Shown here: one piece after another, positions 28,433-50,346 of the stretch
Layout: every line of letters starts with the position of its first letter
Position numbering within the stretch: the first letter of the stretch is position 1
Source: Rickettsiales bacterium
GTDB taxonomy: Bacteria; Pseudomonadota; Alphaproteobacteria; Rickettsiales; UBA8987
DNA: 64,000 bases
Reading direction: 5' to 3'
Assembly (NCBI GenBank): GCA_020630095.1
Contig: JAHDCD010000005.1
Location: 81,358 to 145,357, forward strand
Made by a program: the position numbers and the translations under genes
The notes under the pieces: generated by a model
The model's input: only the letters and a program-made list of their open reading frames with translations
What the model was told of the DNA's origin: nothing
Database searches by the model: none

Positions 28433-28509
<77 letters not shown>

Positions 28510-28819: not shown

Positions 28820-30406
28820 TTAAGCTGCTAGAATTTCATTTTGAATATTCCAGTCTAGTTCAGTAATTTGAGATAATTGCCTGAACGATAATTTTGCAGG
28901 AAGAGAGCCTCTGATTATAGAAGCCTGAATTTGAGGTGATAAAAAAGTCAAATTGAATAATTTTCTTAAATCTGAGTTATGAATATTCTTAGTTGCCGCA
29001 AACTCTTTAAGCATAAGATTTGAATCATAAAATTCTCTTTTCCATTTTTTAGCTTTAACTAATTTTGCTAAAATATAGTCTGATTTCGGGTTCAGCTCTT
29101 TTACATTATTTGTGGTAAAATCTTTAGGTGTAATATCACCTTTAACGGTAAGAATATTACCGTTCTCTAAAATGCTTAAGTTCCCCAACTTTTCAAAGTG
29201 AATATCGTTAGCTGCATGGTGGTAATTTTCTAATTCAGTATCTAATTTAGATCTATTAAACTTTACCTGAACCCAGCTGATATCAGCTACTATATCCAAA
29301 TCTATATTCAGCAAAATATCATTAAATTTCCTGTCATTATTTATATATCTCAGCTTTGGATTATTATGAGATGAGCAGATAATATCTTTAACCAATCGCT
29401 CAATTTTCTTGGCATTAACATTTGCTAATATTTTTGCTGATGAGCAAGATTTATAACCTTGCTTTAGCGCATGCTGAGAGGTGTAATAATAGTATTTCTT
29501 AGACCCTTTATTTGCATGAGTTCCTTGCATCAGATAATTATCAGTGGTTCTAATTAAGCCTTTAAGTAAATAATTATGCTTTGATGATTTATTATTTATC
29601 CCAGTTTGAGTTTTTAGCAATTTCTGCTGCACTTTCTCAAAGGTTTCATCAGCAATAATTGCTTCATGCTCACCTTCATAAACTTCTCCCTTATGACATA
29701 TTTTACCGTTTACCAATTTATTAGCGAGCAGCGTTTTAAGAGTAATCTTATTATATGAGTTGCCCTGAGATGTCTTGATATGCTCAATCTTTTCAAGTGT
29801 GTCAATAAAGCCTTTAGATTTCAAAAAGGTCTTAAAAATGAATATTAAGTCATCTTTATGTATCGAATTTATCAAAAGTTTTCTATCTTCAACTTTATAA
29901 CCTAGCGGCACAGGGCCACCCATCCACATTCCTTTCTTTTTTGATGCTGCGAACTTATCTCTAATTCTCTCAGATGTTACTTCACGTTCAAATTGAGCAA
30001 AGCTGAGTAGCACGTTTAGCGTCAATCGCCCCATTGAAGATGTGGTGTTAAATTGTTGAGTAATGGATACAAAACTTACTTCATGCTTATCAAACACCTC
30101 AATCATCTTAGCAAAATCTGCAAGTGCGCGTGTTAGCCGATCAACTTTATAAACAACCACTATATCAACCAACCCCGCCTCAATATCTTTCAATAGTTGC
30201 TGTAGCGCTGGCCTATTCATATGACCACCTGATATTCCACCATCATTATATTGAGTTTTAACCAACTGCCAGCCTTCATGCTTATGCGCCTGAACATATG
30301 CTTCACCAGCCTCTCTCTGTGCATCTAGGGAATTAAACTCCTGCTCTAATCCTTCCTCAGAAGATTTACGAGTATATATTGCACATTTAAGTTTCTTAAC
30401 TGCCAT
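28820..30406 (-). mobile_element. Large serine recombinase (integrase) CDS
   Basis: The ATG at 30406 is preceded by GGAGG. The N-terminal resolvase domain has AIYTRKSS, VVVYKVDRLTR and SFAQFERE. A long C-terminal recombinase/zinc-ribbon-like region follows. Confidence 0.9.
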
Positions 30407-30836
30407 TCTTACCTCCCCCAAGATTAAAGAATTTAGGCCCAGATTGATGCACTCCTGTAATATCTTTGGCGACTGCACTCAAGGATTTATAACTCTGATT
30501 ATTATACTCAAATTTAGATTTACCTTTATAAGTTACCTCAATTTGTATACCCTTATATCTCTTTCTAAGAATCTGCCCTTCGCTAAATAACTCGGTGTCT
30601 TTTTTAGTAGTTTTTAGAGATTCTTTATCACCTGGATCTTTCATTAGCCTTGCTATTTTCAAGCGTTCACTGTCCTTAAGCCCTCCATTTTCTCTTCGCT
30701 GCAACTCATATGCAATCTCTTGTCGTAGTAGCGATAATATTGATGGCGGTTTATAATTAAAATTAAGCTTAGACCAAATTAACTCCAGCTCTTCACGATT
30801 TATATTCTCAATTTCTGATATAAATATATTCTTCAT
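30396..30836 (-). CDS. DUF2924-like protein, usual partner of large serine recombinases
   Basis: ATG at 30836. It overlaps the recombinase start by 11 nt. The C-terminal YNNQSYKSLSAVAKDITGVHQSGPKFF matches my recollection of DUF2924. Confidence 0.65.
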   Translation of the reverse strand: MKNIFISEIENINREELELIWSKLNFNYKPPSILSLLRQEIAYELQRRENGGLKDSERLKIARLMKDPGDKESLKTTKKDTELFSEGQILRKRYKGIQIEVTYKGKSKFEYNNQSYKSLSAVAKDITGVHQSGPKFFNLGGGKNGS

Positions 30837-30932: not shown

Positions 30933-31134
30933 AGCACTAATAAATGTGCTGGGGCTTCAAAACCTCTTTCCAGACGCGGTAGACTGCAGCTACCGTTATC
31001 AAAACTGCTATCATCTCGATTTTAAGTCGGGGTGGTGGCGTAATACAAGAACTGCTCGCAGTAAAAGCGTCGCGGTCGCTCGTTTGGACGACTTTTGAAC
31101 ACCCCGGCACCAAGAAATTGGTGCCTTTATTTTA
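30933..31134 (+). ncRNA. Candidate structured small RNA (unclassified)
   Basis: A TTGATA-N17-TAAACT promoter lies at 30898-30926. The stretch is visibly GC-enriched, with hairpins at 30977-30995 and a long-range CGGGGTG/CACCCCG pair. It ends in a GGCACC/GGTGCC stem plus T-run at 31106-31134. Confidence 0.3.
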
Positions 31135-31382
31135 TATTATGTTGGGCGTTCTAAAATTCTTATTTGTAATAATCCTTATCTTGCTATCACCAGCAATAAT
31201 TCTGGTTTATATTATTGGATTCTTAGTGAAGGAGTTTTTTGTAAAAATTAAGATAGCAATAAAAGGTAATTTTTAACCCCCGCAACCTAAACACGACATA
31301 AACGGAGATAAATTAACGTACCAAGACATAATTACATTACTTTATCCTCGCTTTCGTGAAAAACAGCTTCTATCTTCATTAT

Positions 31383-32939
31383 ATGAGTAATAACAATGAT
31401 TCACTTTCTAACGAAATTAAGCAAACATTATGGAAAACGGCAGATAAGCTACGTTCAACCATGAGCCCATCAGAATATAAGCACGTGGTGCTTGGCTTAA
31501 TATTCTTAAAGTATATTTCAGACTCATTTGAAGTTCGCCGCTCAACCCTAGAAAATAATTTCCGCAATCCCGACCACGCAGATTATGAAGCTGATGAAGC
31601 AGAAATATTAGAGCTATTGGAAGAAAAAGATTATTACACCATGGATAATATATTCTTCGTACCCAGCAACTCACGCTGGCAAGCAATCCAAAATTCAGCA
31701 AAACAAGCCGGCCTAGGTAAACGCATAGATGACGCCCTGCTAGAAATTGAAAATGAAAACCAATCATTAAAAGGCATCTTAAACCGCAATTACGCACGCT
31801 TACCAATTGAAGATGATAAACTAGCTGGCCTAATTGATTTAATATCTACCATAGGCTTCAATGAAGGCGATAAATCCACCGACATATTAGGGCAAGTTTA
31901 CGAATATTTCCTAGGACAATTCGCATCAGCCGAAGGTAAACGTGGCGGCGAGTTCTACACATCAGCTTCAATTGTAAAAACCCTTGTTGAAGTGCTAGCC
32001 CCATATAAAGGTAAAATTTACGACCCTTGCTGTGGCTCTGGTGGTATGTTCGTTCAATCAGAAAAATTCATCAAAGCTCATGGCGGTAAAATTGCCGATA
32101 TCTCCATTTACGGGCAAGAGATGAACTCAACCACATGGAAGCTGGCCGCAATGAACCTAGCAATTCGTGGCATAGATTATAATCTAGGGCGTGAACCGCA
32201 AGATAGCTTCTTCAAGAACCAACACCCAGATTTACGTGCAGATTTCATAATGGCTAACCCTCCATTTAACGTTTCAGATTGGGGCGGCGATAAGCTAGAG
32301 AGTGATAATCGCTGGAAATATGGCACTCCGCCAGCAGGTAATGCCAACTTCGCTTGGATTCAGCACATGATACACCATCTGAACGCCAACGGTAGAGCCG
32401 GCATAGTGCTTGCTAATGGTTCAATGAGCTCCACCACATCAGGCGAAGGAGAAATTCGCAAAAGCCTAGTTGAAGGAGATGTTGTAGAGTGCATGGTGGC
32501 ACTTCCGGGGCAATTATTCTTCAACACGCAAATTCCCGTTTGCTTATGGTTTTTAGCCAAGCAAAAGAAACGCAAAGGCGAGGTGCTATTTATTGACGCG
32601 CGCAATTTAGGCGAAATGGAAACCAGAGTACAAAAAGTTTTCTCTGATTCCGATATATCAGAAATTGCCAACACATACCATAATTGGGCGGCAGCTAATG
32701 ATGAATATGAAGATATAAAGGGGTTTTGTAAATCTGCCAGCTTAGCTGATATTGAAAGCCATGATTTTGTGCTAACCCCCGGCAGATATGTTGGCGTTGC
32801 CGATGAAGAAGATGATGGCATACCATTTGAAGATAAAATGCGAGATTTAACGCAAAACCTAAAGACTCAATTTGAAACCTCCGCCGAACTTGAACTGCGA
32901 ATTAAAGATAACCTTTCTAAATTGGGTTATGCGATATAA
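31383..32939 (+). CDS. hsdM: Type I restriction-modification system methyltransferase subunit
   Basis: N-terminal LWKTADKLR, AdoMet motif DPCCGSGGMF and catalytic NPPFN. Confidence 0.95.
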   Translation: MSNNNDSLSNEIKQTLWKTADKLRSTMSPSEYKHVVLGLIFLKYISDSFEVRRSTLENNFRNPDHADYEADEAEILELLEEKDYYTMDNIFFVPSNSRWQAIQNSAKQAGLGKRIDDALLEIENENQSLKGILNRNYARLPIEDDKLAGLIDLISTIGFNEGDKSTDILGQVYEYFLGQFASAEGKRGGEFYTSASIVKTLVEVLAPYKGKIYDPCCGSGGMFVQSEKFIKAHGGKIADISIYGQEMNSTTWKLAAMNLAIRGIDYNLGREPQDSFFKNQHPDLRADFIMANPPFNVSDWGGDKLESDNRWKYGTPPAGNANFAWIQHMIHHLNANGRAGIVLANGSMSSTTSGEGEIRKSLVEGDVVECMVALPGQLFFNTQIPVCLWFLAKQKKRKGEVLFIDARNLGEMETRVQKVFSDSDISEIANTYHNWAAANDEYEDIKGFCKSASLADIESHDFVLTPGRYVGVADEEDDGIPFEDKMRDLTQNLKTQFETSAELELRIKDNLSKLGYAI

Positions 32940-32967
32940 CTTTTTTGTCGTTCGTTGACGCAGTAAT

Positions 32968-32997
32968 TGTCATTCGCCGACTTGATCGGCGAATCCA
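32968..32997. repeat. Half-size palindromic element related to families A/B
   Basis: TGTCAT-TCGCCGA-CTTGA-TCGGCGA-ATCCAG. It has the same GTCAT terminus and the ATCCAG of family B. Confidence 0.55.
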
Positions 32998-33012
32998 GAA
33001 ATAAAAATAATT

Positions 33013-33618
33013 ATGAAAAATTTATTAAAAATAGAAAAGTGGATTAAAGAAAAACTTATCTCACTAAAAAGTCAAGTTAAGCCTTTTTGTCATTTAATAG
33101 GTTTGTTGGGCGCATTCTTATTGCTTATTATTTTTTTACTATCTTCAAAGAAGATAGATATTCTCATTATTTATACTCAAATGTTTGTTGGCATAGGCTT
33201 GATATACTTTGCAGGTAAGCAATATCAAAATCAAAAGATACAAAGAGAAGATGCACTTTTTGATAAGAGGTTAAATCTTATTAAAAAGATAGATAGTCAG
33301 TTTATAAAGCTAAGTTTAGAAATAAATTCCGCTCAAAAAGAAGAGATTAATTTAGAAAAACTTTATCATGATGCTACAAGCCTTATGGGTTTACTAACCT
33401 TTGAAAGAAAAGAGTTTGAATATCTATTCCCTGATAATAAAAACCAAGGAGTAATTAATTTTTTTACATTAATGAAGCTATCAACAGACTTTGTAAGTAA
33501 TGGATTAGATAAGTGTAAAGATAATAATTCTATAAGAAGTAAATTTATTGCTGATATACGAGATATAATGATGAACCTTCCTTTTGAAGATTTAACAAAA
33601 TTTATAGAAAATGAATAA
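33013..33618 (+). CDS. Two-TM membrane protein of unknown function nested between hsdM and hsdS
   Basis: Hydrophobic segments LIGLLGAFLLLIIFLL and IIYTQMFVGIGLIYFA, followed by a helical cytoplasmic tail. The stop overlaps the hsdS start by 8 nt. Confidence 0.6.
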   Translation: MKNLLKIEKWIKEKLISLKSQVKPFCHLIGLLGAFLLLIIFLLSSKKIDILIIYTQMFVGIGLIYFAGKQYQNQKIQREDALFDKRLNLIKKIDSQFIKLSLEINSAQKEEINLEKLYHDATSLMGLLTFERKEFEYLFPDNKNQGVINFFTLMKLSTDFVSNGLDKCKDNNSIRSKFIADIRDIMMNLPFEDLTKFIENE

Positions 33619-34894
33619 TTGGCAAGAAAAGACGCTAGGCGAAGTTTGTTTTAATGCATCAGAAACATTTGATCTAAAAAAACAAGATGAAGTCATTTTT
33701 ATAAATACAGGAGACGTATTAAAGAATAAATTCTTACACAATAATCTATCCAAAGTTAAAGGATTGCCGGGGCAGGCAAAAAAATCAATTATTATAAACG
33801 ATTTGTTGTATAGTGAGATAAGGCCGCAAAATAGCCGGTATGCATTAGTAGATTTCGATTGTGAAAACTACGTTGTTTCAACTAAGTTTATGATTTTGAG
33901 ATCATACAATAATATACTGCCTAAATATTTACTTTTATTACTTAGCTCAAATATTTATTTAAAAGAGTTTCAACTAATAGCAGAATCAAGATCTGGAACA
34001 TTTCCTCAAATCACGTTTGACTCAATATCTTATTTTCCAATTAACTTACCACCTATAGACGAGCAGGAGAGGATAGCGGAGGTGCTGGGGAGTTTAGATG
34101 ATAAGATAGAGAATAATAACCGCATGAATAAAAGCCTTGAGCAGATGGCGGAGGCGATATTCAAATGTTGGTTCATTGACTTTGAGCCGGTAAAGGCAAA
34201 AATGGCTGGCGAAAGCGAGGAGTCTATTTGCGCTAGGTTAAACATCACCCCTGAAATTCTAACCCTCTTCCCTAACTCCCTCACCGAATCCGAACTAGGC
34301 AAAATCCCTACAGGCTGGGAAGTTAAAACTTGCGGCGAAGTATTTGATATTTGTGGTGGCACCACTCCAAGCACGAAGAATGAAGCTTTTTGGAATGGGG
34401 ATATAAACTGGGTAACTCCAAAAGATTTATCTAGGTTAAATTCAATAATTTTAACAAATAGTGAAAGAAAGATAACAGAAGCTGGGCTTATGAAAATCAG
34501 CTCTGGATCGCTCCCTGTTAATACAGTTCTGATGTCTTCAAGAGCACCTGTTGGGTACTTATCAATAACGGCAATTGAAACAGCCATTAATCAAGGATTT
34601 ATTGCATTTAAAGAAAATACAAACTTACCATCAGAATATACACTAAACTGGTTGAAGCATAATATGGAAGAGATTAAGAACCGTTCGGGCGGCTCAACCT
34701 TTTCAGAGATTAGCAAAACTGTTTTTAGATCAATTGATAAAATTTTACCCGAAAGTGAAATAATTAATTCTTACGTGGGTATAGCAAAAGCCATGTATCA
34801 AAAAATTAATGAGAATCAGAAACAATCGGAGGAGTTGGCGAAGGCAAGAGATGCGCTTCTGCCAAAACTAATCTCCGGCGAAATAAGGGTATAG
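33611..34894 (+). CDS. hsdS: Type I restriction-modification system specificity subunit
   Basis: Two target-recognition domains are separated by a conserved helix (PPIDEQERIAEVLGSLDDKIENN). The C-terminal conserved helix is LPKLISGEIRV. Confidence 0.93.
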   Translation: MNNWQEKTLGEVCFNASETFDLKKQDEVIFINTGDVLKNKFLHNNLSKVKGLPGQAKKSIIINDLLYSEIRPQNSRYALVDFDCENYVVSTKFMILRSYNNILPKYLLLLLSSNIYLKEFQLIAESRSGTFPQITFDSISYFPINLPPIDEQERIAEVLGSLDDKIENNNRMNKSLEQMAEAIFKCWFIDFEPVKAKMAGESEESICARLNITPEILTLFPNSLTESELGKIPTGWEVKTCGEVFDICGGTTPSTKNEAFWNGDINWVTPKDLSRLNSIILTNSERKITEAGLMKISSGSLPVNTVLMSSRAPVGYLSITAIETAINQGFIAFKENTNLPSEYTLNWLKHNMEEIKNRSGGSTFSEISKTVFRSIDKILPESEIINSYVGIAKAMYQKINENQKQSEELAKARDALLPKLISGEIRV

Positions 34895-34897
34895 GTT

Positions 34898-35296
34898 ATG
34901 AATGAGGTTAGATATAATTTACAAAATATATCTTTAGCAGTTGAAGGGCTTATTATTGGATCGGGCTCAATTGGCAAACGTCTTGCTAATGAATGCACTA
35001 TGGGCAACCCTTTAGATAAGATTGATTGGGAGTATTTACATAATCATTGTGATGCTTGGATTAAAGAAGATGTTGAATACTTGAAAAATAAATTTGAGGA
35101 GATTGAGGCACTTTCTAAAAAAAGAATTAAAGATGAGATAGAAATGCAAGGTATTATGTATGAAAGAGGAATTAGGTATAATAACAGCGTTGAAGCTCTA
35201 ATATCTAGAATGAAGGGGCAGGCAAAAGAAATCGCAAAGCATCTTCACAACATACATATGTATAATTGTTATAAAGAAAGGTGGGGGAATGAATAA
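34898..35296 (+). CDS. Hypothetical 132-aa protein (first gene of nested cassette)
   Basis: The ORF starts 3 nt after the hsdS stop. No recognisable motif. Confidence 0.5.
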   Translation: MNEVRYNLQNISLAVEGLIIGSGSIGKRLANECTMGNPLDKIDWEYLHNHCDAWIKEDVEYLKNKFEEIEALSKKRIKDEIEMQGIMYERGIRYNNSVEALISRMKGQAKEIAKHLHNIHMYNCYKERWGNE

Positions 35297-35299
35297 GTA

Positions 35300-36016
35300 A
35301 TGAGTAAAAAGTTTAACATATATTGCGATGAGAGCTGTCATTTGCTGCCGAAAACTATCATAGAAGAAAATAGATATATGGTGCTTGGTGGTATTGAATG
35401 TCCTGAAAATATTAAATCTGAAATCTTTAATAGAATTAAAGAAATTAAAGAAAACAATGGGATTAAATATTCTACAGAACTTAAATGGACTAAGGTTTCT
35501 AAGGGTAAAGTTGAAGCTTATAAAGATATTATAAATTATTTCTTTGATAAAGATGGCCTTAAATTTAGAGCAGTTGTTGTTGATAAATCTAAACTTAAAG
35601 AAGGCGAAGATAAAAAGTCATTTAACGAGCTATATTATAAAATTTACTACCAACTTCTTAATTGGTTTTTAGATGATAGCCATTTGTATAATATCTATAT
35701 TGACATTAAAGACACCCAGGGTGTTGAGAAAATAGATAAATTAAAAGATGTTCTTCGAAATAAACTCTACGATTTTGATGGTAATTGCTTGAAGAAGATT
35801 CAGCAAATTCGCTCTCATGAAGTAGCTACAATGCAGATGGTTGATATAATAATTGGTGCTGTATCATACGCCAATAGATATGGCGATAAAGGCAAGAGTG
35901 ATGCTAAGAATGAATTGGTTGATCTTATCCGTAGTAAATCTGGATTAAGCTTAGTTAAAAGTTCTACTCAAGGGGCTAAAAAATTTAATATTTTCTGCTG
36001 GGAGGGTAAGCGATAA
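35300..36016 (+). CDS. DUF3800-like protein
   Basis: The N-terminal IYCDESCH and C-terminal MQMVDIIIGAVSYA segments match my recollection of the DUF3800 signature. Confidence 0.6.
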   Translation: MSKKFNIYCDESCHLLPKTIIEENRYMVLGGIECPENIKSEIFNRIKEIKENNGIKYSTELKWTKVSKGKVEAYKDIINYFFDKDGLKFRAVVVDKSKLKEGEDKKSFNELYYKIYYQLLNWFLDDSHLYNIYIDIKDTQGVEKIDKLKDVLRNKLYDFDGNCLKKIQQIRSHEVATMQMVDIIIGAVSYANRYGDKGKSDAKNELVDLIRSKSGLSLVKSSTQGAKKFNIFCWEGKR

Positions 36017-36513
36017 TGGATTTACCCGATCTTTTAGAAATTGAGCATTTTGGTGGCTCATGGGATAATTATCTTGATGCAGCATATAAAATCTATTGCG
36101 ATGAAGTTGTTAATGGTAATTTAGATTTTATGGGAATTGAGATTAAGTGTCCTTGGCACCCACCTTTTAATGATAAGCACTTTTCTTTCTGGCATATTAT
36201 ATCTCAAGCTAGTTCGGCATCAACTAAAGAAGAAGATAGAGAGCCTGACTTTGAAAGAATAAAAAGAATAAGGTGGATACCATTTATTTTAAAAATTAGT
36301 AAGAATCAAAATGAAGTTTTATGCTGGAATAAAATTGTAAAAACCAAACGAGGGCGAAAAACACATTTACAGATTTTACATAAAAATTCTGGATTTATGA
36401 TCGTACTAAGGAAGGCAAAAAATAGATATGATATAGTAACAGCGTACAGGATAAAAAACCCTGGAAGAAAAATTGCTGAGTATGATAAGGTAATGGATCC
36501 GAGAAAAGCATAG
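36016..36513 (+). CDS. Hypothetical 165-aa basic protein, translationally coupled to the DUF3800-like gene
   Basis: 1-nt stop/start overlap (TAATG) and a GGAGG about 10 nt upstream of the ATG. No recognisable motif. Confidence 0.55.
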   Translation: MDLPDLLEIEHFGGSWDNYLDAAYKIYCDEVVNGNLDFMGIEIKCPWHPPFNDKHFSFWHIISQASSASTKEEDREPDFERIKRIRWIPFILKISKNQNEVLCWNKIVKTKRGRKTHLQILHKNSGFMIVLRKAKNRYDIVTAYRIKNPGRKIAEYDKVMDPRKA

Positions 36514-36604
36514 GGCATAAATGCCCTAAGTAGCTCCTCTTACACTAGGCAAGTGAGACTAGGTACACTATAACACATAATTAACGTAAATAGCAAGTGG
36601 AAAA

Positions 36605-39600
36605 ATGAGAATAACAGAAGATACATTAGAGCAAGCATTGATTGAATGGCTTGGTGAGCTGGGTTTTGGTTATGAGCATGGCTCTAATTTTACGCCAGAT
36701 AGTAGCGATGAACGTACGAGCTATAAGCAAGTTATCCTTGAACAAAAATTGCGTAATGCGTTAGAGCGAGTTAATCCGAATTTGCCAGCAAAAGCTATTG
36801 ATGATGCGTTATATCAGATAATAAATCCATCGCACCCCAGCTTACTTCAACGCAATAGAGAGTTCCAAAAGTTATTATCTACCGGTATTAAAGTTGAATA
36901 TGATAATGGCGATGAAGAAGTGGGTGATATTGCCTATTTAGTGGACTTCGAGAATGTTGATAATAATGAGTGGTTAGTTGTTAATCAGTTTACTATTGAA
37001 GGCACTTACGCTAACCGCCGCCCTGATGTTATAATTTTCGTTAATGGTTTGCCGTTATTTGTATTTGAATTGAAAAATCCAGCCGATGAAGAAGCTGATA
37101 TTTGGAAGGCTTATGAGCAAATTCAATTTTACAAAGAACGTATAGAGGATTTATTCAATAGTAATATTGCGTGCATTATATCTGATGGCATAGATGCACG
37201 AATAGGCTCTTTAACGGCCAATAAAGAACGCTTTATGGCTTGGCGTGCAGGTGATGAAGATGAAGCATCTGCAGCATTAGAACTTGAGAAATTCACAAGG
37301 GCATTTTTTATCAAAGAAAATCTGCTTTCTTATATGCAGTATTTCATATTATTTGAAGAAGATGAAAAAAATATAATTAAGAAAATTGCCGGCTATCATC
37401 AATTTTACGCTGTGCAAGCGGCAATGAAAAGTACATTAGCCGCTACATCTGAAAATGGTGATAGGCGCGCAGGCGTTGTTTGGCATACTCAAGGTTCGGG
37501 TAAATCTATTTCTATGACGTGCTATGCTTCAATGGTAATGAGGCATAAAGGAATGAATAACCCTACTCTTGTTATTGTTACGGATAGAAACGAGCTAGAT
37601 AACCAACTATTCGAGCAATTTTGTAAAGCTAAAGATGCATTAGGAGAATTACCTCAAAAAGCCGATAGTAGAGAAGAAGTAAAAGAACTTTTAGCTAACA
37701 GGCCTTCTGGTGGCGTTATATTTACTACAATACAAAAGTTTGGTTTGAATGAGGATAGTAATGAATATCCAGCATTATCAGAGCGTAAAAATATTGTAGT
37801 TATTTCTGATGAAGCTCATAGAAGTCAATATGGTCATAAAGCCAGAGTTGATAAAGAAACTGGAAAGGTGAAATATGGCTATTCTAAATATCTTCGTGAT
37901 GCATTGCCAAATGCCTCATTTATAGGTTTTACGGGTACTCCAGTTGAAATGGAAGACAGAGATACAAGAGCTGTATTTGGTGGGTATGTTCATATTTATG
38001 ATATTAAACAAGCCGTAGAAGATGGCGCAACTGTTACACTTCATTATGAGCCACGCTATATTCCGTTAACTGCCGATGAAGAAATGCTCGCCAAACTTGA
38101 TGAAGAGCTAGATGAGATATTAGAAGATGAGGAAGAAGAATCTTCGGAAAAACATAAATCTAACTGGTCTACCATGGCGCGCTTAGCTGGCGCAGAACCT
38201 AGGGTAAAACTTTTAGCTAAAGATATTGTTGAACATTTTGAAGAGCGCACATCTGCATTAGATGGTAAAGCAATGGCCGTATGCATGACTCGTGATATAT
38301 GCGCCGATTTATATGAGGAGATAATAAAATTACGCCCAGATTGGCATGATGACGACCCTATGAAAGGCGTTGTTAAAGTAATTATGACATCTAACGCTTC
38401 TGATAGTGAAAAGCTACGTCGTCATAATTATGGCTCGAAGGTTAAGAAGGATATGGAGAAAAGAGCCAAAAATCCCGATGACCCTCTTAAAATTGTTATT
38501 GTACGTGATATGTGGCTCACTGGCTTTGATGCACCTTCTATGCATACAATGTACATTGATAAACCAATGAAGGGGCATAATTTAATGCAGGCTATAGCTA
38601 GAGTTAATAGGGTGTTTAAAGATAAGCCTAGTGGCCTGATTGTTGACTATATTGGAATTGCTAATGAGCTAAAACTTGCGAAAGAAACTTATACTGCAAG
38701 TAACGGTAAAGGCGATATTATCATCGATTCTCAAAAGCAGCTAGAATTACTTAAAGAAAAAATGCACGTGGTAAGAGATATGCTTCATGGAGTTGATTAC
38801 TCTTCATATCAACAAAATGCTCTATCTGTAATGCCTTTGATGATGGATCATATACTAGGTCTTGACGATGGTAAAAAACGTTTTGCAGATGCAGTTTTAA
38901 TAGCGTCTAAAGCAATGGCTATATGTGGCACTTTAGATGAAGCGACTGATTACAGAGATGAATTAGCATTATTTCAAGCGGTAAAATCAGCATTATCCAA
39001 AAAAGCTGGTGGTAAACTCAGAAGTAAAGATGATATTGATAACGCTATGCGTCAAATAATATCAAATGCGGTAATTACCGATGATATTGTTGATATATTT
39101 GATGCATCAGGGGTAAAAAAGCCAGATATTTCTATTTTATCAGATGATTTCTTAAAAGAGTTTAGCAAAATGCCACAAAAGAATTTGGCAGTTGAATTGC
39201 TTGAACGCATAATGGCAGATAAAATTAAATCTAAAGCTGATAGCAATATTACTACGGCAAAAAAATACTCCGATAGACTGAAAGAAGTTATTAGCAGATA
39301 CCAATCTAGAACGGTTGATACCTCTGAAATTATTGAAGAGCTAATATCAATGGCTAAAGAATATAATCAAGCCGAAAAACGTGGGGATAATTTAGGTTTA
39401 AATTCAGATGAATTGTCATTTTATGATGCATTAGAAACTAATGAAGCAGCTGTTAGAGAATTAGGCGATGAAGTTTTAGTTACCATTGCTAGAGAGCTTA
39501 CGGATAAACTTCGTAAATCTGTAACTATTGATTGGCAAAATAGAGAATCTGTAAGAGCTAAAATTAGAATTGCCATCAAACGCATTCTTAAAACTCATAA

Positions 39601-39682
39601 ATATCCACCTGATAAGCAAGAAAAGGCAATTGAAACTGTTTTAAAACAAGCTGAATTATTATCTCATAGTTTAGTGCAATAG
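36605..39682 (+). CDS. hsdR: Type I restriction enzyme endonuclease/translocase subunit
   Basis: N-terminal PD-(D/E)XK (RRPDVIIFVNGLPLFVFELK), Walker A TQGSGKS and DEAH box (ISDEAHRSQ). 1025 aa. Confidence 0.95.
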   Translation: MRITEDTLEQALIEWLGELGFGYEHGSNFTPDSSDERTSYKQVILEQKLRNALERVNPNLPAKAIDDALYQIINPSHPSLLQRNREFQKLLSTGIKVEYDNGDEEVGDIAYLVDFENVDNNEWLVVNQFTIEGTYANRRPDVIIFVNGLPLFVFELKNPADEEADIWKAYEQIQFYKERIEDLFNSNIACIISDGIDARIGSLTANKERFMAWRAGDEDEASAALELEKFTRAFFIKENLLSYMQYFILFEEDEKNIIKKIAGYHQFYAVQAAMKSTLAATSENGDRRAGVVWHTQGSGKSISMTCYASMVMRHKGMNNPTLVIVTDRNELDNQLFEQFCKAKDALGELPQKADSREEVKELLANRPSGGVIFTTIQKFGLNEDSNEYPALSERKNIVVISDEAHRSQYGHKARVDKETGKVKYGYSKYLRDALPNASFIGFTGTPVEMEDRDTRAVFGGYVHIYDIKQAVEDGATVTLHYEPRYIPLTADEEMLAKLDEELDEILEDEEEESSEKHKSNWSTMARLAGAEPRVKLLAKDIVEHFEERTSALDGKAMAVCMTRDICADLYEEIIKLRPDWHDDDPMKGVVKVIMTSNASDSEKLRRHNYGSKVKKDMEKRAKNPDDPLKIVIVRDMWLTGFDAPSMHTMYIDKPMKGHNLMQAIARVNRVFKDKPSGLIVDYIGIANELKLAKETYTASNGKGDIIIDSQKQLELLKEKMHVVRDMLHGVDYSSYQQNALSVMPLMMDHILGLDDGKKRFADAVLIASKAMAICGTLDEATDYRDELALFQAVKSALSKKAGGKLRSKDDIDNAMRQIISNAVITDDIVDIFDASGVKKPDISILSDDFLKEFSKMPQKNLAVELLERIMADKIKSKADSNITTAKKYSDRLKEVISRYQSRTVDTSEIIEELISMAKEYNQAEKRGDNLGLNSDELSFYDALETNEAAVRELGDEVLVTIARELTDKLRKSVTIDWQNRESVRAKIRIAIKRILKTHKYPPDKQEKAIETVLKQAELLSHSLVQ

Positions 39683-39702
39683 TATTATAATAAGTTTTAC
39701 CT

Positions 39703-40671
39703 ATGCGATTAGAAAAAGCAGAGAATTTATTGAAATTAGCCATCCTTATGCAAACAAAGGAGGATGGAGTCAGCTTAATTGATATTCAAGAAGAGTTCGA
39801 CGTTGGTAGGCGAACTGCAGAAAGAATGCGCGACTCTATCCAAAGGTTAATTCCATCAACCCATTCTATTGGACGTGAAGGTAGGATAAAGAAGTGGAAA
39901 ATATCAGATAATAAATTTGGCTCATTAATTAACTTTTCAGCTGATGAGTTAGCTCAAGTAAAAGCATCTGCAAATAAATTACGTGAGACAAAATTAGATA
40001 GTGATGCTGATACTCTTGATGAGGTTTATGCTAAAATTAAATCATCACTGCCATTAAATCAAAATGTACGTTTAGAACCTGATATAGAAGCTATTATTGA
40101 GGCTGAAGGTTACGATACAAGAGTTGGTGTTAAGAATAAAATTTCCAGCGATATTTTAAATATTCTGCGCGAGGCCATTAAATCATGTAAAAAAGTTAAA
40201 ATCACTTATCAAAATAGCCAAGATAAGCAATCTACCAGAACTGTTGCGCCTTATGGATTCCTTTATGGAAATAAGCATTATATTATCGCTATGTGCTCAA
40301 AGGCTGATGGTATTAGAACATTTAATTTAAGTAAGATTGTTAAAGCTACGCTTACAGAAATTTCATACGAGATACCTTCGGATTTTAACTTGAAAGCTTA
40401 TAATCAGCGCTCTTTTGGAGTATTCCAAGAAATACCACACGAGGTAATTTGGAGGTTTAGCCCTGAAGTAGCAAATGCAGCTAATGAATATGAGTTTCAC
40501 CCATCTCAAGAAACGGAAATTTTAGAAGATGGTTCATTACTGGTTTCATTTACTGCAGGTGGCTTAAAGGAAATGTGCTACGAACTCTTCAAATGGGAAG
40601 GTGCTGTTGAAATTATAGCGCCGGAAGAGTTGAAAGACGAATTTAGAGAAATTATGAAGTCTAACCTTTAA
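39703..40671 (+). CDS. WYL-domain transcriptional regulator (HTH-WYL-WCX architecture, BrxR/CapW-like)
   Basis: N-terminal wHTH (IDIQEEFDVGRRTAERMRDSI). The central WYL-like segment is RTVAPYGFLYGNKHYIIAMCSKADGIRTFNLSKI. Confidence 0.8.
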   Translation: MRLEKAENLLKLAILMQTKEDGVSLIDIQEEFDVGRRTAERMRDSIQRLIPSTHSIGREGRIKKWKISDNKFGSLINFSADELAQVKASANKLRETKLDSDADTLDEVYAKIKSSLPLNQNVRLEPDIEAIIEAEGYDTRVGVKNKISSDILNILREAIKSCKKVKITYQNSQDKQSTRTVAPYGFLYGNKHYIIAMCSKADGIRTFNLSKIVKATLTEISYEIPSDFNLKAYNQRSFGVFQEIPHEVIWRFSPEVANAANEYEFHPSQETEILEDGSLLVSFTAGGLKEMCYELFKWEGAVEIIAPEELKDEFREIMKSNL

Positions 40672-41749
40672 TACTATAATTCCTTAAAAAATCTGCAAAT
40701 GTAACACACCTATTTTTAGGAATCATCGCAGCAATCCAACCTTTGCCTCTTCCTTTCTTTCCACTTTTATCCTTTAAAAGATTCGCCTGTAATTTAACTG
40801 GACTATCTAGGAAATAATATGTTGCATCTTCACCCTGAATATCATTCTCAATCTCTAGCGCAGCCTGCCATTTAGGTAGCAATTCTTTTTTCTTCAGAGG
40901 AAACTCCTCATTAGAAAAGGAATTTTCAATCAACTTCTCACAAGTATCTTGTACAAGCTCCCATTTGATATTTTTAATAGTGATTATGCCTAATATTTTA
41001 GAAAGACTTGGTATTCCTTCATCTAGATTGGCTAAATTACCTCGTGTAAAATAGGGTGCGAAATATAAAGGTGAGCCATTCACTTTGCCCCTTCTATAGA
41101 CACCATTCTGGTATCTTCTAATCTCACTATCCAAGCCAACATCTTGTATTAATATTTCTTTTTGATTTGCCATTCCATAACTCCTTTCATAATATTTTAA
41201 AAACTCATCTAATTCTTCTCCAGCATTTGGATTTTGATCCGCCAACTCATTTATTAATTCACGCCATGTGATATCAATAATATTCAAATTATTGTCACCG
41301 CCATGAAGGTTGATTCCTGATTGATGAGATAAGAAAACAAAGAATTTTTTATACTTATCATCCTCTTTCTTATCATAGATAGGTTTGTATAATTCGAATT
41401 GCTCTCTGGTAGCTTTTCCCGAACCGACCTTACATTCTATAATTAGAAAATATCTCGTTTCCTTATCTGTAAATTCAATTTCTATATCGGTGCGTCCACC
41501 TTTGTCTGAATCATTTAGTTCTGCAGCCTTATATGATTTCTCAATTTTAATATCTAAACTCTTAAACCACGAACTTGATTTTTGTTCTAATTTTATATCT
41601 AGCAACTTGCATAAAGCCCTAATTACTTTTGGGTCAACTCCTGCCAGATAAGCTAAAACTTTTGATAGATTAGTTTCCTTTCTAGTAGAGTCTAAAATAT
41701 CAAATAAGTTCAAATAGCTCTTTTTATTTTCTGCGCTTTTAATCTGCAT
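40661..41749 (-). CDS. PD-(D/E)XK nuclease-family N-terminal domain protein with unknown C-terminal domain
   Basis: The N-terminal NLFDIL..ETNLSKVLAYL and GRTDIEIEF....FLIIECKVGS segments give a D...E-x-K pattern. Confidence 0.6.
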   Translation of the reverse strand: MQIKSAENKKSYLNLFDILDSTRKETNLSKVLAYLAGVDPKVIRALCKLLDIKLEQKSSSWFKSLDIKIEKSYKAAELNDSDKGGRTDIEIEFTDKETRYFLIIECKVGSGKATREQFELYKPIYDKKEDDKYKKFFVFLSHQSGINLHGGDNNLNIIDITWRELINELADQNPNAGEELDEFLKYYERSYGMANQKEILIQDVGLDSEIRRYQNGVYRRGKVNGSPLYFAPYFTRGNLANLDEGIPSLSKILGIITIKNIKWELVQDTCEKLIENSFSNEEFPLKKKELLPKWQAALEIENDIQGEDATYYFLDSPVKLQANLLKDKSGKKGRGKGWIAAMIPKNRCVTFADFLRNYSIKG

Positions 41750-43223
41750 AACTCTTCACCACCTCCAAAAGTTTAACCATAGCATAAGTGTCCAGTTTGC
41801 AATATTCTAATAGGTCTGGAATTGAAGCTTTAAAGTCTTTATCAGTCAATTTGCCTTTAACAAAATTAGAGAAGCAGCTCATAGCATCTGCACCGTTAGA
41901 TATTTCCATATCAGCATATGAAAACTTAGTAAATGCAGGTAAAACCTTTTTAATTGAATAAGAGCCTTCCTGATTAGGATGGTAAAGATGCCTTGATCTA
42001 AAAGGAATTGCTAAATCTACCATGCGTGAATTTATATTATCAATCACATCGGCATATTCAGGCAGGAATTTTGCGAGCTCATTATTGCGCGCTTCTTCAA
42101 ATGACTGATTATAAACAATAACACTGCCGCTATTACCCAACGCATCTACTAAAACTTTAGCAAAATCACACCTTGGGTCAGATTTCTTATCATGTAGAAA
42201 TTCAATATGCTCTAGCTTACCATTTTCCTCTTTTTGTATATGAAGTGAAAATTGAAATGGTATCTGTTGATACGGGCGAGAGCCATTAAATGGAGGAATT
42301 GCCTCACCGAAAGTTTCGTAATCGAGATAATATAATGGATATTCCAATTTAGATGCAAAAGCCTTTAACTCATTTTTATCAATAAAAGCTTCACCATTCA
42401 TATATGAGTTATAATCAACAGATTTATTGCCATTGGGCGCACCGGATTCTGGTAAATCCAGAATATCAAAGCTCCCAGATTCATTTCCAATTTCAAAACC
42501 TCTTTTTGCACCCAGTAATTCAATAATTGAATATTGAGGGATATTATCCCAACAGTAATCTTTGTAATCACACTCAAATGGTTTTAAGCAATGCGTGCCG
42601 TTATTGATTTTCGGCTCCTCACTTGATGCCAAAACTTCTAATAAAGGTTTAACCCTAGCCTCAACCTCATCCTGTTTGGCTAAAGTTTCATCTGTTATAT
42701 CATGAAGTTTAAATATCTTTTGTGGATCAATATCACCATCACGCACATATTCATTATTAATTACCATCATGTAGCAATTGCGGATATTATACCCCGCACC
42801 TTTAAACGCATAATATTGCAGCGACATATCATCATAATGATAATCTTTAACGCTAGTGCTAGATTTAACCTCAATAAGATCTACTGATTTATCAAGATTA
42901 ACTTTTAAAATATCAATTTTTGAGTACGCACCGGTGTCGCGGTGAATTGCAGTTGCCTCAAATATTACTCGATAATCAGCATCTATATAATCTTTAGTTA
43001 GAGATACTGCTTCAGCAACTTTCCAATAAGGGGCTTCAACCTCTATAGATTTTAACTCAAAATATTCTTTTGCTAACTCGCCAACTTCGTGACCTGTATC
43101 AAATAACGCCTGTTGTTCTGGTGTGATTTCAGGCTTTAAATCTTTTCTATTTCTAAACAGCCATAACGCTTTTGGGCATTGCTTACCCTTCACATATTGA
43201 GATTTTGATATTGTGTGACTCAT
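41739..43223 (-). CDS. Cas4/RecB-like PD-(D/E)XK nuclease fused to DEDD-like exonuclease domain (DUF2779-like)
   Basis: The ATG at 43223 lies 4 nt after the upstream stop. The four-Cys pattern is C(QCP)...HC-x5-C-x5-C. Nuclease motifs are IDILK...DLIEVK. The C-terminal half has YLDYET, YNQSFE and KLDTYAM. Confidence 0.65.
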   Translation of the reverse strand: MSHTISKSQYVKGKQCPKALWLFRNRKDLKPEITPEQQALFDTGHEVGELAKEYFELKSIEVEAPYWKVAEAVSLTKDYIDADYRVIFEATAIHRDTGAYSKIDILKVNLDKSVDLIEVKSSTSVKDYHYDDMSLQYYAFKGAGYNIRNCYMMVINNEYVRDGDIDPQKIFKLHDITDETLAKQDEVEARVKPLLEVLASSEEPKINNGTHCLKPFECDYKDYCWDNIPQYSIIELLGAKRGFEIGNESGSFDILDLPESGAPNGNKSVDYNSYMNGEAFIDKNELKAFASKLEYPLYYLDYETFGEAIPPFNGSRPYQQIPFQFSLHIQKEENGKLEHIEFLHDKKSDPRCDFAKVLVDALGNSGSVIVYNQSFEEARNNELAKFLPEYADVIDNINSRMVDLAIPFRSRHLYHPNQEGSYSIKKVLPAFTKFSYADMEISNGADAMSCFSNFVKGKLTDKDFKASIPDLLEYCKLDTYAMVKLLEVVKSYAD

Positions 43224-43227
43224 AATA

Positions 43228-43944
43228 TTAACTTTTATAATGTGTAAATCTTTCAATATATTCAGGGTTCATTAGAAGCTCTTTTGCACTTTCTAAATCT
43301 TCCATAACGCATCTAGGAATATCTATATTTTTAGGTAAATTTTTATGTCTATATATAAAATGAGGTGCAAACTTATTAAAACTATCTCTATTTCTCATTG
43401 ATGATTTAATATTGTCCGAAAATCTGACTAACCATTTTTCTTGATCTGTTTGACTTATAATTTCATTTATATCGATATTAGATAATCTTAATCTAAACTT
43501 ACCACATTGAATAAATTTACGGTACTGTCCTTCTTGAATTTGAATACCTAACTCTAGTTCATTATCGTTATCTAACTTTTTAATTAAAGAACACCCAACC
43601 AAAGGTAATTTTCTTGTTAAACCATAATAGAAGTTTGTTTTTATTTCATCTTCATTTACCGAAAAATTATTTTCTTTGAAGTGAGCCTCAATTCTATCTA
43701 AAAGTTTACTTGCTAGATATTTCTCAATTGTTTCAGCAAAGCGTATCCCGTTAAGATGATCATATGTATCTCCCTCATCTTTGCTACGCAACAAAAATGG
43801 AAATTCACTATCATCACCTATTAATTTTATTTTAGTTAACTTATTTAAAACTCTTAATAAATCGGTGTAGTCTTTATGATATTCTGTGCGCCAATTTATA
43901 TCGTCTAACTTATCAGATAAATCACCAAAGCTAATATCTGCCAT
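43228..43944 (-). CDS. Hypothetical 238-aa protein
   Basis: The ORF is tightly packed between the truncated methyltransferase and the nuclease-exonuclease gene. No recognisable motif. Confidence 0.5.
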   Translation of the reverse strand: MADISFGDLSDKLDDINWRTEYHKDYTDLLRVLNKLTKIKLIGDDSEFPFLLRSKDEGDTYDHLNGIRFAETIEKYLASKLLDRIEAHFKENNFSVNEDEIKTNFYYGLTRKLPLVGCSLIKKLDNDNELELGIQIQEGQYRKFIQCGKFRLRLSNIDINEIISQTDQEKWLVRFSDNIKSSMRNRDSFNKFAPHFIYRHKNLPKNIDIPRCVMEDLESAKELLMNPEYIERFTHYKS

Positions 43945-44947
43945 TCTTGCCTAGATTGATATTATTAGTGTGCGGTGCTTTGCCATTTTTATAAACACAA
44001 ACCATCTCATGCTTTGAGCGATATAATGAACCCATACCACCATTATTCTTATTCCAAACGCAGATATTTTTATGTTCGCTATAATATTCTTTAGCAGCAC
44101 TTATTAGTTCGTAGAGATGTCGCCAATCCATAAAGATATAATGAAGAGAGCCGTCTTTAGAGAATTTTACAGCTTGATTTATGAATTTAGAGAGAAACTC
44201 AATAAATTCATTCTCAGACATTTCTCCTGATGCCATAGCAAATTCATCATGCTTAATTGAGCCATTGCCGCAAACATGATTATCTATATTAACATTAAAC
44301 GGGGGGTCACTCAGAAGGGCATCTGCCTTTTCATTTTCTTTGAAAAGTTGCTGATAAGATTCTTCTTCAGTAGAGTCACCACATATTAAAATATGCCTAC
44401 CCAGAATTATAACATCACCAAGCTTCGTAATAGGTGCTAAGTTATCATCTGCTTCCGGAATATATTCAGGCTCAGGTTCTTTATCAGAATCATCATCTGC
44501 ACCAGCCATAATTACCTCAAGCTCATCATTATCAAAACCCGGAATAATGAACTCCTCATCTAGCTCCATAACCTCATCAAGTATAATAGTTAGCTCTTCA
44601 GCCAAAGCTTCTTCATCAAGGCCTGTCATTAATGATATTTTATTATCAATAATTCTAAGTGCCTTCACCTGATGTTCAGATAAGTGATCTACATAAATTA
44701 CAGGGATTTTTTTATATCCTGCTAATTTAGCCACTTCCAGACGCGCATGACCAGCTATAATAATATTCTCTCTATTTAACAATATGGGAAATAAGAAGCC
44801 GTACATACTAACCGAATTTAGTAATGCCCGCTCTTGTTCCTTATCATGCTCTTTGGTGTTATTCTGATAGGCTATTGGTATATCAACTGAGACATACTCA
44901 ATCTGGATATTTAAATCCTTATAAAGGGTATCTATTTTATTGTTCAT
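43931..44947 (-). CDS. ParB-like N-terminal domain fused to an N6/N4 DNA methyltransferase that is truncated before the AdoMet-binding motif (possible pseudogene)
   Basis: ParB/Srx box IIAGHARLEVAKLAG, then catalytic motif IV SDPPFN, then GGMGSLYRSKHE. The ORF stops right after GKNGRY, with no HPT.KP or F/G-x-G-S-G motif. Confidence 0.7.
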   Translation of the reverse strand: MNNKIDTLYKDLNIQIEYVSVDIPIAYQNNTKEHDKEQERALLNSVSMYGFLFPILLNRENIIIAGHARLEVAKLAGYKKIPVIYVDHLSEHQVKALRIIDNKISLMTGLDEEALAEELTIILDEVMELDEEFIIPGFDNDELEVIMAGADDDSDKEPEPEYIPEADDNLAPITKLGDVIILGRHILICGDSTEEESYQQLFKENEKADALLSDPPFNVNIDNHVCGNGSIKHDEFAMASGEMSENEFIEFLSKFINQAVKFSKDGSLHYIFMDWRHLYELISAAKEYYSEHKNICVWNKNNGGMGSLYRSKHEMVCVYKNGKAPHTNNINLGKNGRY

Positions 44948-45075: not shown

Positions 45076-47334
45076 TCACCTCAAATCAAATCTATCTGCA
45101 TCCATAACTTTCACCCAGGCGTTTATGAAGTCGTTCGTGAACTTCTCTTTTGAGTCATCCATGGCATAAACTTCAGCGATAGCTCTAAGCTCGGAGTTTG
45201 AGCCAAAGATTAAATCAACAGGAGTAGCAGTATATTTAACGTTGCCAGCTTTACGGTCAATGCCTTCATAGATTCCATCTCCAGATGACTTTTGCCATTT
45301 AGTAGACATATCAAGTAAGTTAACAAAGAAATCATTATTTAATGTTCCAACTTTATCAGTGAATATACCATGTTTAGAACCATAACTATTAGCGCCAAGT
45401 GAACGCATACCGCCAATAAGCACAGTCATTTCAGGAACTGTTAGACCAAGCTGATCTGCTTTATCAACTAGCATTTCTGTTGGAGAACGATAAGATTCAG
45501 ACTCGTCATAAAAATTTCTAAACGCATCAGCTGTTGGTTTAAGTAAGTTGAAAGAATCAATATCAGTTTTTTCTTGTGTGGCATCACCACGACCAGTTGA
45601 AACTTCAACTTCTACATCATCAAAGCCTGCATCTTCTGCAGCCTTTTCAATTGCTGCTGCACCACCAAGAATGATTAGATCAGCAAGTGATACATCATCT
45701 TTGCCATAATCATCTTGAATTTCTTTCAACTTAGTTAAAACCTTACCCAGCTCTTTAGGATTATTTGCTTCCCAAGATTTCATAGGCTCTAATGCAATTC
45801 TTGCGCCATTAGCACCACCTCGCATATCAGAATCACGATATGATGAGGCTGAAGCCCAAGCTGTTCTAACTAGTTCCTGCACAGTCAAGTTAGAATCTAA
45901 AATACGTTTCTTTAATTTACGAACCTGACTATCAAGCAATTCTTTACCTTCAGGAATAGGATCTTGCCAAATTAGCTCTTCAGAGGGTAGCTCTGAACCA
46001 TGATAATTGGCAACAGGCCCCATATCGCGATGAGTTAACTTATACCAAGCTTTGGCGAAGCTTAAGCGATATTCTTCAGGATTAGCCAAAAAGCGCTCAG
46101 CAATCTTCTTATATTCAGGGTCAGCCTTTAATGCTAAATCTGCTGTAGTCATCACAGGTGGGTTATACTTCCCCTCAATATGCGCATCTGGCACAGATTC
46201 ATGCATATCTTTATCAGTTGGTATCCATTGTTTAGCACCAGCTGGGCTTTGAGTTAATTCCCATTCATTGTTGAGTAAATTCTCTAGATATAGAGTTGTC
46301 CATTGCGTTGGAGCTTGTGTCCATGCACCTTCTAAACCCGAAGTCACAGTATCTTCAGAGTGACCTTTACCGCATTTATTCTTCCAACCTAAACCTTGCT
46401 CTTCAATTGATGCTCCACCAGGCTCAACACCAACACAATCAGATGGTTTATGCGCACCATGCATTTTGCCGAATGTGTGACCACCAGCAATTAGGGCAAC
46501 TGTCTCTTCATCATTCATTGCCATACGACCAAATGCTACACGGATATTTTTTGCAGATGCGGCAGAATCAGGCTTGCCCCTAGGACCTTCAGGATTAACA
46601 TAAATTAATCCCATATGCATTGCACCTAATGGTCGCTGTAGCTTACCATCTCTATCTTCACGGTCAGAAGCAAGCATCTCTAATTCAGGCCCCCAATATA
46701 CTAAATCTGGCTCCCAATCATCGGCTCTACCGCCGGCAAAACCGAATGTTTTAAAACCCATATTCTCCAATGAAACATTACCTGCAAGAATCATTAAGTC
46801 AGACCAAGATAGTCTTTTACCATATTTCTTTTTCAACGGCCAAAGTAAGCGCTTAGCTTTATCTAAATTGCCATTATCAGGCCAGCTATTTAAAGGATCA
46901 AAACGCATTTGACCGCCACCGCCACCGCCACGACCATCAAGCGTTCTATATGTTCCTGCACTATGCCAAGATAGGCGAATGAAGAATGGGCCGTAATTAC
47001 CAAAATCAGCAGGCCACCAATCTTGAGAGGTGGTAAGAATTTTATCTAAGTCTTTTTTTACAGCAGCCAAATCAAGTTTCTTAAATTCTTCAGCATAGTT
47101 AAAGTCTTTGCCATAAGGGTTTGAGCGTGAATCATGGTCACGAAGTGAAGATAAATCTAACTGATCAGGCCACCAAAAACTATTTGGCTTTGCTTGAAAT
47201 GCCTTAACCATCTTATTCATTTTAATCTTATCACTACCTACAGGGCATTCAGGCTCACTAATTTTTGCATTAGCTGAGCTCACTGATAATCCAGCTGTTA
47301 GCAGTGAAATAATAATTAAGCTTTTGATTCTCAT
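45076..47334 (-). CDS. katG: Catalase-peroxidase with N-terminal signal peptide (periplasmic type)
   Basis: 752 aa. [18 protein letters not shown] and GGHTFGK motifs. The N-terminus [23 protein letters not shown] is signal-like. Confidence 0.95.
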
Positions 47335-50330: not shown

Positions 50331-50346
50331 GATAGATAAATATAAC

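Follow-up and report, generated by a model that had tools for sequence, protein, structure and literature searches.

Why should a type I restriction-modification (R-M) operon carry additional genes between those encoding its specificity and restriction subunits? The question is raised by a 64,000 nt stretch of Rickettsiales DNA (contig JAHDCD010000005.1; hereafter 'the window'), in which three open reading frames (ORFs) on the plus strand, starting at 34898, 35300 and 36016, separate hsdS from hsdR. The first-pass annotation of this sequence described them as a tightly packed three-gene cassette, which the R-M complex might mask or license, with a DUF3800-like protein encoded in the middle. 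All three frames are present and packed as it described: 3 nt separate hsdS from the first (ORF132, 34898-35296), a further 3 nt separate ORF132 from the second (here termed A, 35300-36016), A and the third (B, 36016-36513) overlap by 1 nt at a TAATG junction, and a 91 nt spacer (36514-36604) lies between B and the start of hsdR. Such nested ORFs do not reflect chance, as homologues of A number in the thousands, at roughly 4800, and those of B in the dozens. The conserved unit, however, is a two-gene module composed of A and B, rather than a trio; it belongs to a family already listed amongst candidate phage defence systems, and it is related to the rlfA/rlfB gene pair of phage P1.

A conserved pair of genes

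The surroundings of A were compared across 80 genome loci carrying close relatives of the gene, distributed over many phyla, with one extra metagenome locus bringing the total to 81, and across a viral sample consisting of the best 80 of 217 viral contigs (IMG/VR, L090-L169), many of which belong to a single group of nearly identical contigs, 30-40 kb long. Searching with a single sequence found a relative of B directly 3' of A in 76 of the 80 genome loci, and searching with a profile found one directly 3' and on the same strand in all 81; the arrangement also recurs in 77 of the 80 viral loci. The commonest A-B junction is a 4 nt overlap, present in 31 of the genome loci. The co-occurrence of the DUF3800 gene with the gene for the 165 aa protein, raised as a possibility by the first-pass annotation, is therefore borne out in both samples. 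ORF132 has no relative in the 86 loci searched and was never seen with the pair in them; it is an orphan unrelated to A and B, and not a conserved partner of them.

When PADLOC profiles were run on the proteins of the window, A and B were found to match PDC-M04A (7.5e-81) and PDC-M04B (5e-38), in that order, and ORF132 to match none. PDC-M04 is one of 145 untested phage defence candidates identified by Payne et al. through 'guilt-by-embedding', which picks out cassettes nested in BREX, DISARM or type I R-M systems without other explanation; in their Table S8 it appears as CAS_00034 (FAM_00014>>FAM_00043, count 679), with the remark 'Assign as candidate PDC-M04' (bioRxiv 10.1101/2024.01.29.577857). 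A later paper leaves the PDC candidates out as 'unvalidated', and belonging to PDC-M04 is no guide to how a protein pair works. The pair in the window is identical in kind, being likewise embedded in a type I R-M system, and is distinguished by the orphan ORF132 in front of it; the suggestion that an accessory module is nested in this operon follows the same reasoning by which Payne et al. came to list the pair. The window copy is a member of this catalogued family and not novel in kind, and since PADLOC would flag it automatically, the locus alone adds little. What is new here is the redefinition of the unit as a pair, in which B is as constant as the predicted DUF3800 nuclease; the extension of its embedding, which is polyphyletic, beyond type I to type III and SNF2-helicase-linked R-M systems; and the connection of PDC-M04 with P1 rlfAB, which we did not find stated in the searchable literature, and which opens the family to immediate testing in E. 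coli using existing P1 genetics.

Protein A (238 aa) matches the Pfam DUF3800 family (PF12686; 1.8e-15) over residues 6-190 with a score of 58.3 bits, against a curated cutoff of 21, such that the assignment first made from short motifs now has a profile match behind it. Both of those motifs, IYCDESCH and MQMVDIIIGAVSYA, are present in the protein. The signature of the family comprises an N-terminal DE and a C-terminal QxxD motif (PMC7736814); in A these correspond to D10-E11, within IYCDESCH, and Q179-M-V-D182. Across 83 sequences of A, P1 RlfA included, eight residues never vary (D10, E11, H14, K62, D135, K137, D138 and D182), and Q179 is kept in 68. An AlphaFold model of A, built from 27 sequences (predicted local distance difference test (pLDDT) 88.8), had six significant Foldseek matches, all of which are archaeal RNase HII or human RNase H2A; amongst them are 1eke, 2dfe, 1io2 and 3puf, with a probability of 1.0 and template modelling (TM) scores of 0.42-0.53. 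An RNase H-like fold has also been assigned to DUF3800 by Mestre et al. 2020 (PMC7736814) and Altae-Tran et al. 2023 (PMC10910872). In the model, D10 and E11 close the first strand, D135 follows the strand formed by residues 129-134 and D182 is found in the long C-terminal helix, making these four residues candidate RNase H-type carboxylates; with D138 they give A a complete set of invariant acidic residues. With its RNase HII-like model and the invariance of these putative catalytic residues, A resembles a functional nuclease. In the parts of the literature covered, we found neither published biochemistry for any member of the DUF3800 family nor a reported phenotype, in agreement with the first-pass annotation, which knew of no experimentally characterised DUF3800-based system. 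The homologues closest to the window copy of A are encoded by metagenome-assembled genomes (MAGs) of Legionellales and Alphaproteobacteria.

DUF3800 proteins also occur in type VII retrons, as TPR-DUF3800 proteins beside Cas12a2/a3 and some type VI-F loci, and in association with the DUF3800-I to XI RNA motifs. The features common to these settings and to A are the RNase H-like domain, the DE...QxxD signature and a presumed effector role in defence; unlike them, the window locus lacks a reverse transcriptase, a TPR domain and a CRISPR array, and the constant partner in this subfamily is B. A type VII retron, consisting of a reverse transcriptase, a non-coding RNA and a DUF3800 protein, was considered and rejected, there being no RVT match in the nine proteins encoded across 31356-41749. 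No Rfam retron or DUF3800 motif was detected in the window, with Rfam covering described RNAs only, and the DUF3800 RNA motifs (Weinberg 2017) were found neither in the window, whether at the gathering threshold or with E values of up to 10, nor in 20 related loci. The lack of an RNA motif accompanying this subfamily of A is consistent with B acting in the partner role.

B is a basic protein of 165 aa (isoelectric point 9.3) that resembles RlfB and, in addition to PDC-M04B, matches phrog_16230 (8.2e-23). The first-pass annotation could name no motif in either of the proteins flanking A; this stands for ORF132, a small protein of 132 aa (isoelectric point 6.2) which matches no family above the curated cutoff in Pfam, PADLOC, NCBIfam or PHROGs, but not for B, which is a PDC-M04B protein and a relative of P1 RlfB. 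Residue H60 of B is invariant, P4, Y24, F58, R75, R81, E83, R84, W104 and T142 are at least 90% conserved, and the protein carries a conserved R-x-P-D-x-x-R-x-E-R-I-x-W stretch. No profile match to B was obtained from Pfam (71 members scanned), NCBIfam or PDB sequences. Its AlphaFold model, based on three sequences, was poor (pLDDT 62.7), and Foldseek searches with it returned nothing below an E value of 0.2 from the PDB and one uncharacterised viral relative from BFVD.

Relatives in phage P1 and positions within R-M loci

In tblastn searches of phage genomes, A was found to be 42.8% identical to RlfA of P1 over 99% of its length (E value 1e-57), and B to be 31.5% identical to RlfB over 88% of its length (E value 6e-20). 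The rlfA/rlfB genes, known as rapA/rapB in P7, share with the pair in the window their order, the 1 nt overlap of stop and start codons and the invariant residues of both proteins. Whereas the window copy is inside an hsd operon on the chromosome, its P1 counterpart comes after kilA-repL, in the immunity/lytic-replicon region of a phage-plasmid and away from P1's own R-M genes. These P1 genes are annotated as 'possibly associated with lytic replication', which has been a positional label only since 2004; it reflects their position after repL, and RefSeq and PHROGs derive their 'replication protein' label from it. Occurrences of the pair in PLSDB are almost all on P1-like phage-plasmids, from E. 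coli and Salmonella. Genes similar to kilA and ant1 are found near the pair in 34 of the 80 viral loci, echoing the ant-kilA-repL-rlfAB arrangement of P1, minus RepL. In P1 itself (L089, AF234172.1, 51575-52908), a C1 operator named Orlf, formerly Op55, is located approximately 100 nt 5' of the predicted rlfA promoter.

The commonest immediate neighbours of the pair are the M, S and R subunits of type I systems, the Mod and Res subunits of type III systems and SNF2 helicases; integrases are also found beside it. Type I or type III R-M genes are nearby in 31 of the 81 genome loci, with neither present in the fetched flanks of the remaining 50, and in 17 of the 35 genome loci having at least 5 kb of sequence on both sides. 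Type I genes are found in the flanks of 20 of the 81, and on both sides of the pair, such that it is nested, in nine. Type III genes occur in the flanks of 11, three of which (L018, L060 and L068) have the order mod-A-B-res, whilst four more type III loci have a DrmD-like SNF2 helicase and mod-res near the pair; in L025, L063 and L074 the pair is situated directly between helicase and mod, giving the order SNF2 helicase-A-B-mod-res. The pair is thereby seen to take two different positions inside the same kind of system, composed of a type III R-M locus and a DrmD-like SNF2 helicase. Where type I or type III modification genes lie on one side of it and restriction genes on the other, its orientation is always the same. 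Type I or type III genes are found near the pair in only one or two of the 80 viral loci.

The nested copies do not constitute a clade. Those copies of A nested in type I systems have a mean pairwise identity of 0.539, against 0.532 for the family as a whole; they occur with at least two HsdR families as well as with type III systems; and the nearest relatives of the window copy, and of several others, are beside integrases or in loci lacking R-M genes. The R-M-nested copies are polyphyletic, and embedding has arisen several independent times. Because of this polyphyly, and because many copies are carried by prophages with no R-M genes nearby, the pair appears to be autonomous rather than a co-evolving R-M subunit, and to be a mobile module that has come time and again to occupy the space separating the transcription units for modification and restriction.

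Other cargo can occupy the same gap. In an alphaproteobacterial MAG (L001; DAOMYX010000023.1, 7777-11219), the hsdS/hsdR slot contains a 189 aa ORF and an AbiP2-type reverse transcriptase (PADLOC 5e-204), followed by A-B. The reverse transcriptase beside the pair at this locus is AbiP2 and not a retron enzyme; several independent modules, a known defence gene included, are stacked in this one R-M operon.

The function of the pair

On balance A-B is probably, though by no means securely, an independent anti-phage or anti-plasmid module, in which A would be the nuclease effector and B a controlling or targeting component; its role in defence, its substrate and the division of labour between its proteins are what we infer from the family, fold, conserved residues, pairing and embedding set out above. 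The defence role rests on genomic context and on the precedent of TgvAB, a GmrSD-like pair from VPI-2 of V. cholerae, comprising two co-dependent genes that lie in a type I R-M locus and act independently of it. As two genes nested in a type I operon, TgvAB provides the best functional analogy for the arrangement in the window; however, its products are unrelated type IV restriction proteins (DUF262 and DUF1524) with a demonstrated phenotype, whereas the function of A-B is a prediction. The pair would then represent self-contained mobile cargo that has repeatedly landed, or been retained, in R-M operons, and that would act by exclusion or abortive infection independently of the R-M system. As an RNase HII-like nuclease, A would depend on metal ions, and its substrate might plausibly be RNA-DNA hybrids or ribonucleotide-containing replication intermediates, as judged from its fold, from the effector role presumed for DUF3800 in type VII retrons and from the association of the domain with structured RNAs. 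B may be a sensor, regulator or targeting subunit of A, and the tight translational coupling of the two genes suggests that their products could form a stoichiometric complex.

Several considerations weigh against this interpretation. The role ascribed to B is guesswork, since the protein has no detectable fold or family, and the catalytic residues of A are assigned from conservation and a predicted model with a TM score of about 0.5, without residue-level superposition. The enrichment for R-M genes has been judged against an estimated expectation of roughly 1-2% for a random gene, rather than a computed genome-wide background. A full-text literature search for PDC-M04 found no paper; no phenotype affecting phages, plasmids or toxicity has been published for any member of the family, and it is explicitly an untested candidate. 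Finally, the C1 operator upstream of rlfA could mean that the P1 pair is expressed in the lytic phase rather than in the lysogen, which would be a poor fit with prophage defence.

An alternative is offered by PrrC, which in the prr (EcoprrI) locus of E. coli is encoded by a non-R-M gene occupying the hsdS/hsdR slot of a type I operon. The window cassette sits in that same slot, which bears out the comparison with the prr locus made in the first-pass annotation, and by analogy the pair might be an R-M-coupled guard or licensed effector, which would be silenced by the restriction complex or sense its state and fire once a phage blocks restriction, or would act on the products of the translocating R subunit. 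The recurrence of the pair, in constant orientation, with modification genes on one side and restriction genes on the other in type I as well as type III systems, would fit with such a role, as would its translational chaining to hsdS in the window. However, PrrC is a single ABC-ATPase anticodon nuclease kept latent by the R-M complex, to which the pair has no sequence or domain similarity, and the PADLOC models of PrrC and RloC matched none of the three proteins; furthermore, PrrC is almost always embedded (Payne et al., 10.1101/2024.01.29.577857), unlike the pair, which is often outside R-M loci. Coupling to restriction is distinctly unlikely given the 50 genome loci without type I or type III genes in their flanks, the rarity of such genes in the viral loci and the distance of the P1 pair from that phage's R-M genes, and the embedded TgvAB system functions without its R-M host. 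Polyphyly across at least two HsdR families and type III systems would also require that a fit between the proteins had evolved repeatedly. The same evidence speaks against the masking or licensing by the R-M complex envisaged in the first-pass annotation. It is very unlikely that the pair is a restriction-linked second line of defence, embedded in type I, type III and helicase-linked R-M systems because it uses or monitors the restriction motor, for instance by finishing R-loop or hybrid DNA where the R subunit stalls, or by firing when R-M is inhibited; if it were, the pair would be a general analogue of PrrC independent of R-M type, and P1 rlfAB would acquire a first function.

A role in the maintenance or replication of mobile elements, with A processing primers or R-loops as an RNase H-type enzyme, in keeping with the old 'replication-linked function' label in P1, or with the pair being an addiction module, akin to toxin-antitoxin systems, that stabilises the island or prophage, is unlikely, if the least improbable of these alternatives. 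It would accord with the position of the P1 genes just after repL/oriL, with the lytic replication label that PHROGs passes on to B, and with the prevalence of these two small overlapping genes on prophages and P1-like phage-plasmids. Nevertheless, a check of 161 loci found no RepL homologue close to the pair, the flanking genes in the window being hsdS, ORF132 and hsdR; rlfA and rlfB were non-essential in a genome-wide CRISPR interference screen of P1 (PMC10695390), the lytic growth of which dispenses with them; the rlfA-rlfB-pmgF segment is swapped for other genes in P1-like plasmids (PMC6906374); and a replication function leaves the repeated embedding in chromosomal R-M operons unexplained. 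In favour of addiction, the strain-specific DUF3800 gene HL77S_00079 scored as essential in transposon sequencing of L. pneumophila HL77S, where it was listed with antitoxins (bioRxiv 10.1101/2020.10.01.323287), a parallel at the level of DUF3800 only; against it, no known toxin or antitoxin domain, including those of type II systems, was found in the cassette by Pfam, NCBIfam or PADLOC. Addiction and defence roles would not be mutually exclusive. We give the least credence to a lineage-specific three-gene system, with ORF132 as a regulator, antitoxin or R-M adaptor. ORF132 is probably genuine: its frame occupies the whole of the 405 nt space between hsdS and A, an equally long open frame arising in one of 2000 dinucleotide shuffles; a Shine-Dalgarno-like AAGGG lies 8 nt 5' of its start; its spacing on both sides is 3 nt; and the GC content at its third codon positions (GC3), at 0.28, is near that of A (0.26) and B (0.24). 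Yet, quite apart from its absence from the 86 loci, a word search of 5.8 billion proteins retrieved only ORF132 itself, and a HMMER scan of 1.84 billion representatives only a single weak relative (P0125; E value 2.9e-4, 27-30% identity), which has a non-defence context, with dapA and SLT adjoining and rnc, era and recO at a greater distance on the same contig. Moreover, the pair directly follows hsdS in three other type I loci (L014, L032 and L047), and the 189 aa ORF and AbiP2 fill the equivalent gap in L001.

Should A-B indeed prove to be an independent defence module, no stand-alone DUF3800 system would have been characterised before it, and it would inform the study of the effectors of type VII retrons and the accessory proteins of Cas12a2/a3.

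The host operon and its surroundings

The R-M system itself is intact, with hsdM, hsdS and hsdR each matching families over their full length in Pfam, PADLOC and NCBIfam profiles. All three are on the plus strand: hsdM (31356..32939) encodes the methyltransferase subunit (Pfam N6_Mtase 6.6e-112 and HsdM_N 2.5e-25; PADLOC MTase_I 9.9e-191), hsdS (33611..34894) a specificity subunit that has two target-recognition domains (Pfam Methylase_S, two stretches, 1.3e-38; PADLOC Specificity_I 3.1e-103) and hsdR (36605..39682) a restriction subunit of the HindI-like C-terminal family (Pfam HSDR_N, SWI2_SNF2 and T1RH-like_C, 1.7e-115; PADLOC REase_I, E = 0). The 91 nt spacer preceding hsdR opens with a 7 bp palindromic hairpin, TAGGGCAT/ATGCCCTA (36511-36528), which takes in part of the B stop codon. 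A plus strand terminator at this point is not convincing: the hairpin lacks a U-tract on that strand, a T-rich tail being apparent only when the minus strand is read, and its fold is not significant (z-score -1.5). Promoter-like matches are fewer than in shuffled sequence.

The first-pass annotation was right that three ORFs are nested between hsdS and hsdR, but overlooked a fourth nested gene, ORF201 (33013-33618, plus strand), which is situated after hsdM and before hsdS, the start of which it overlaps by 8 nt. Its GC content is 25.6%, in comparison to 36-42% for the hsd genes and 30-32% for A and B; with a GC3 of about 0.25, A and B are no different from hsdR in this respect, and foreign composition is clearly evident only for ORF201. 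Peaks of hydropathy around residues 22-44 and 48-68 indicate two N-terminal hydrophobic segments. ORF201 has no match in Pfam or PHROGs, matches NCBIfam only far below cutoff and PADLOC only weakly (PDC-M24A, 0.0084), and has no homologue in the 86 loci searched; this foreign-looking gene is not part of the RlfAB-type pair. A 9 bp hairpin, ATTCGCCGA...TCGGCGAAT, is located directly 5' of it.

The hsd operon is carried by an island that starts at a tRNA-Arg(ACG) gene (28433-28509), next to which a large serine recombinase is encoded on the minus strand (28820-30478); these two are likely to mark its integration end. No att-like direct repeat or repeat of the tRNA-Arg 3' end was found within 28300-52000, hence the far boundary of the island is not fixed. 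Further genes of the defence type are found downstream of hsdR, between 39703 and 50348. A WYL-WCX protein, possibly a regulator of the island, is encoded 20 nt 3' of hsdR on the plus strand (39703..40671; Pfam WYL 1.6e-14 and WCX 6.5e-12; PADLOC WYL 8.1e-30), and is followed on the minus strand by genes for a PD-(D/E)XK protein similar to PDDEXK_4 and PDC-S26 (40661-41749), a 504 aa Cas4-like nuclease (41739-43256), a fusion of ParB with a DNA methyltransferase (43931-44947), a 751 aa protein that was given no family (45076-47334) and a SoFic homologue (49242-50348). At the other end of the operon there is a sub-threshold Rfam match to sRNA-Xcc1 on the plus strand (31026-31116; 41.4 bits against a gathering threshold of 53, E value 1.2e-4), which covers the full model and is ended by a terminator-like hairpin (31106-31125) approximately 240 nt 5' of hsdM.

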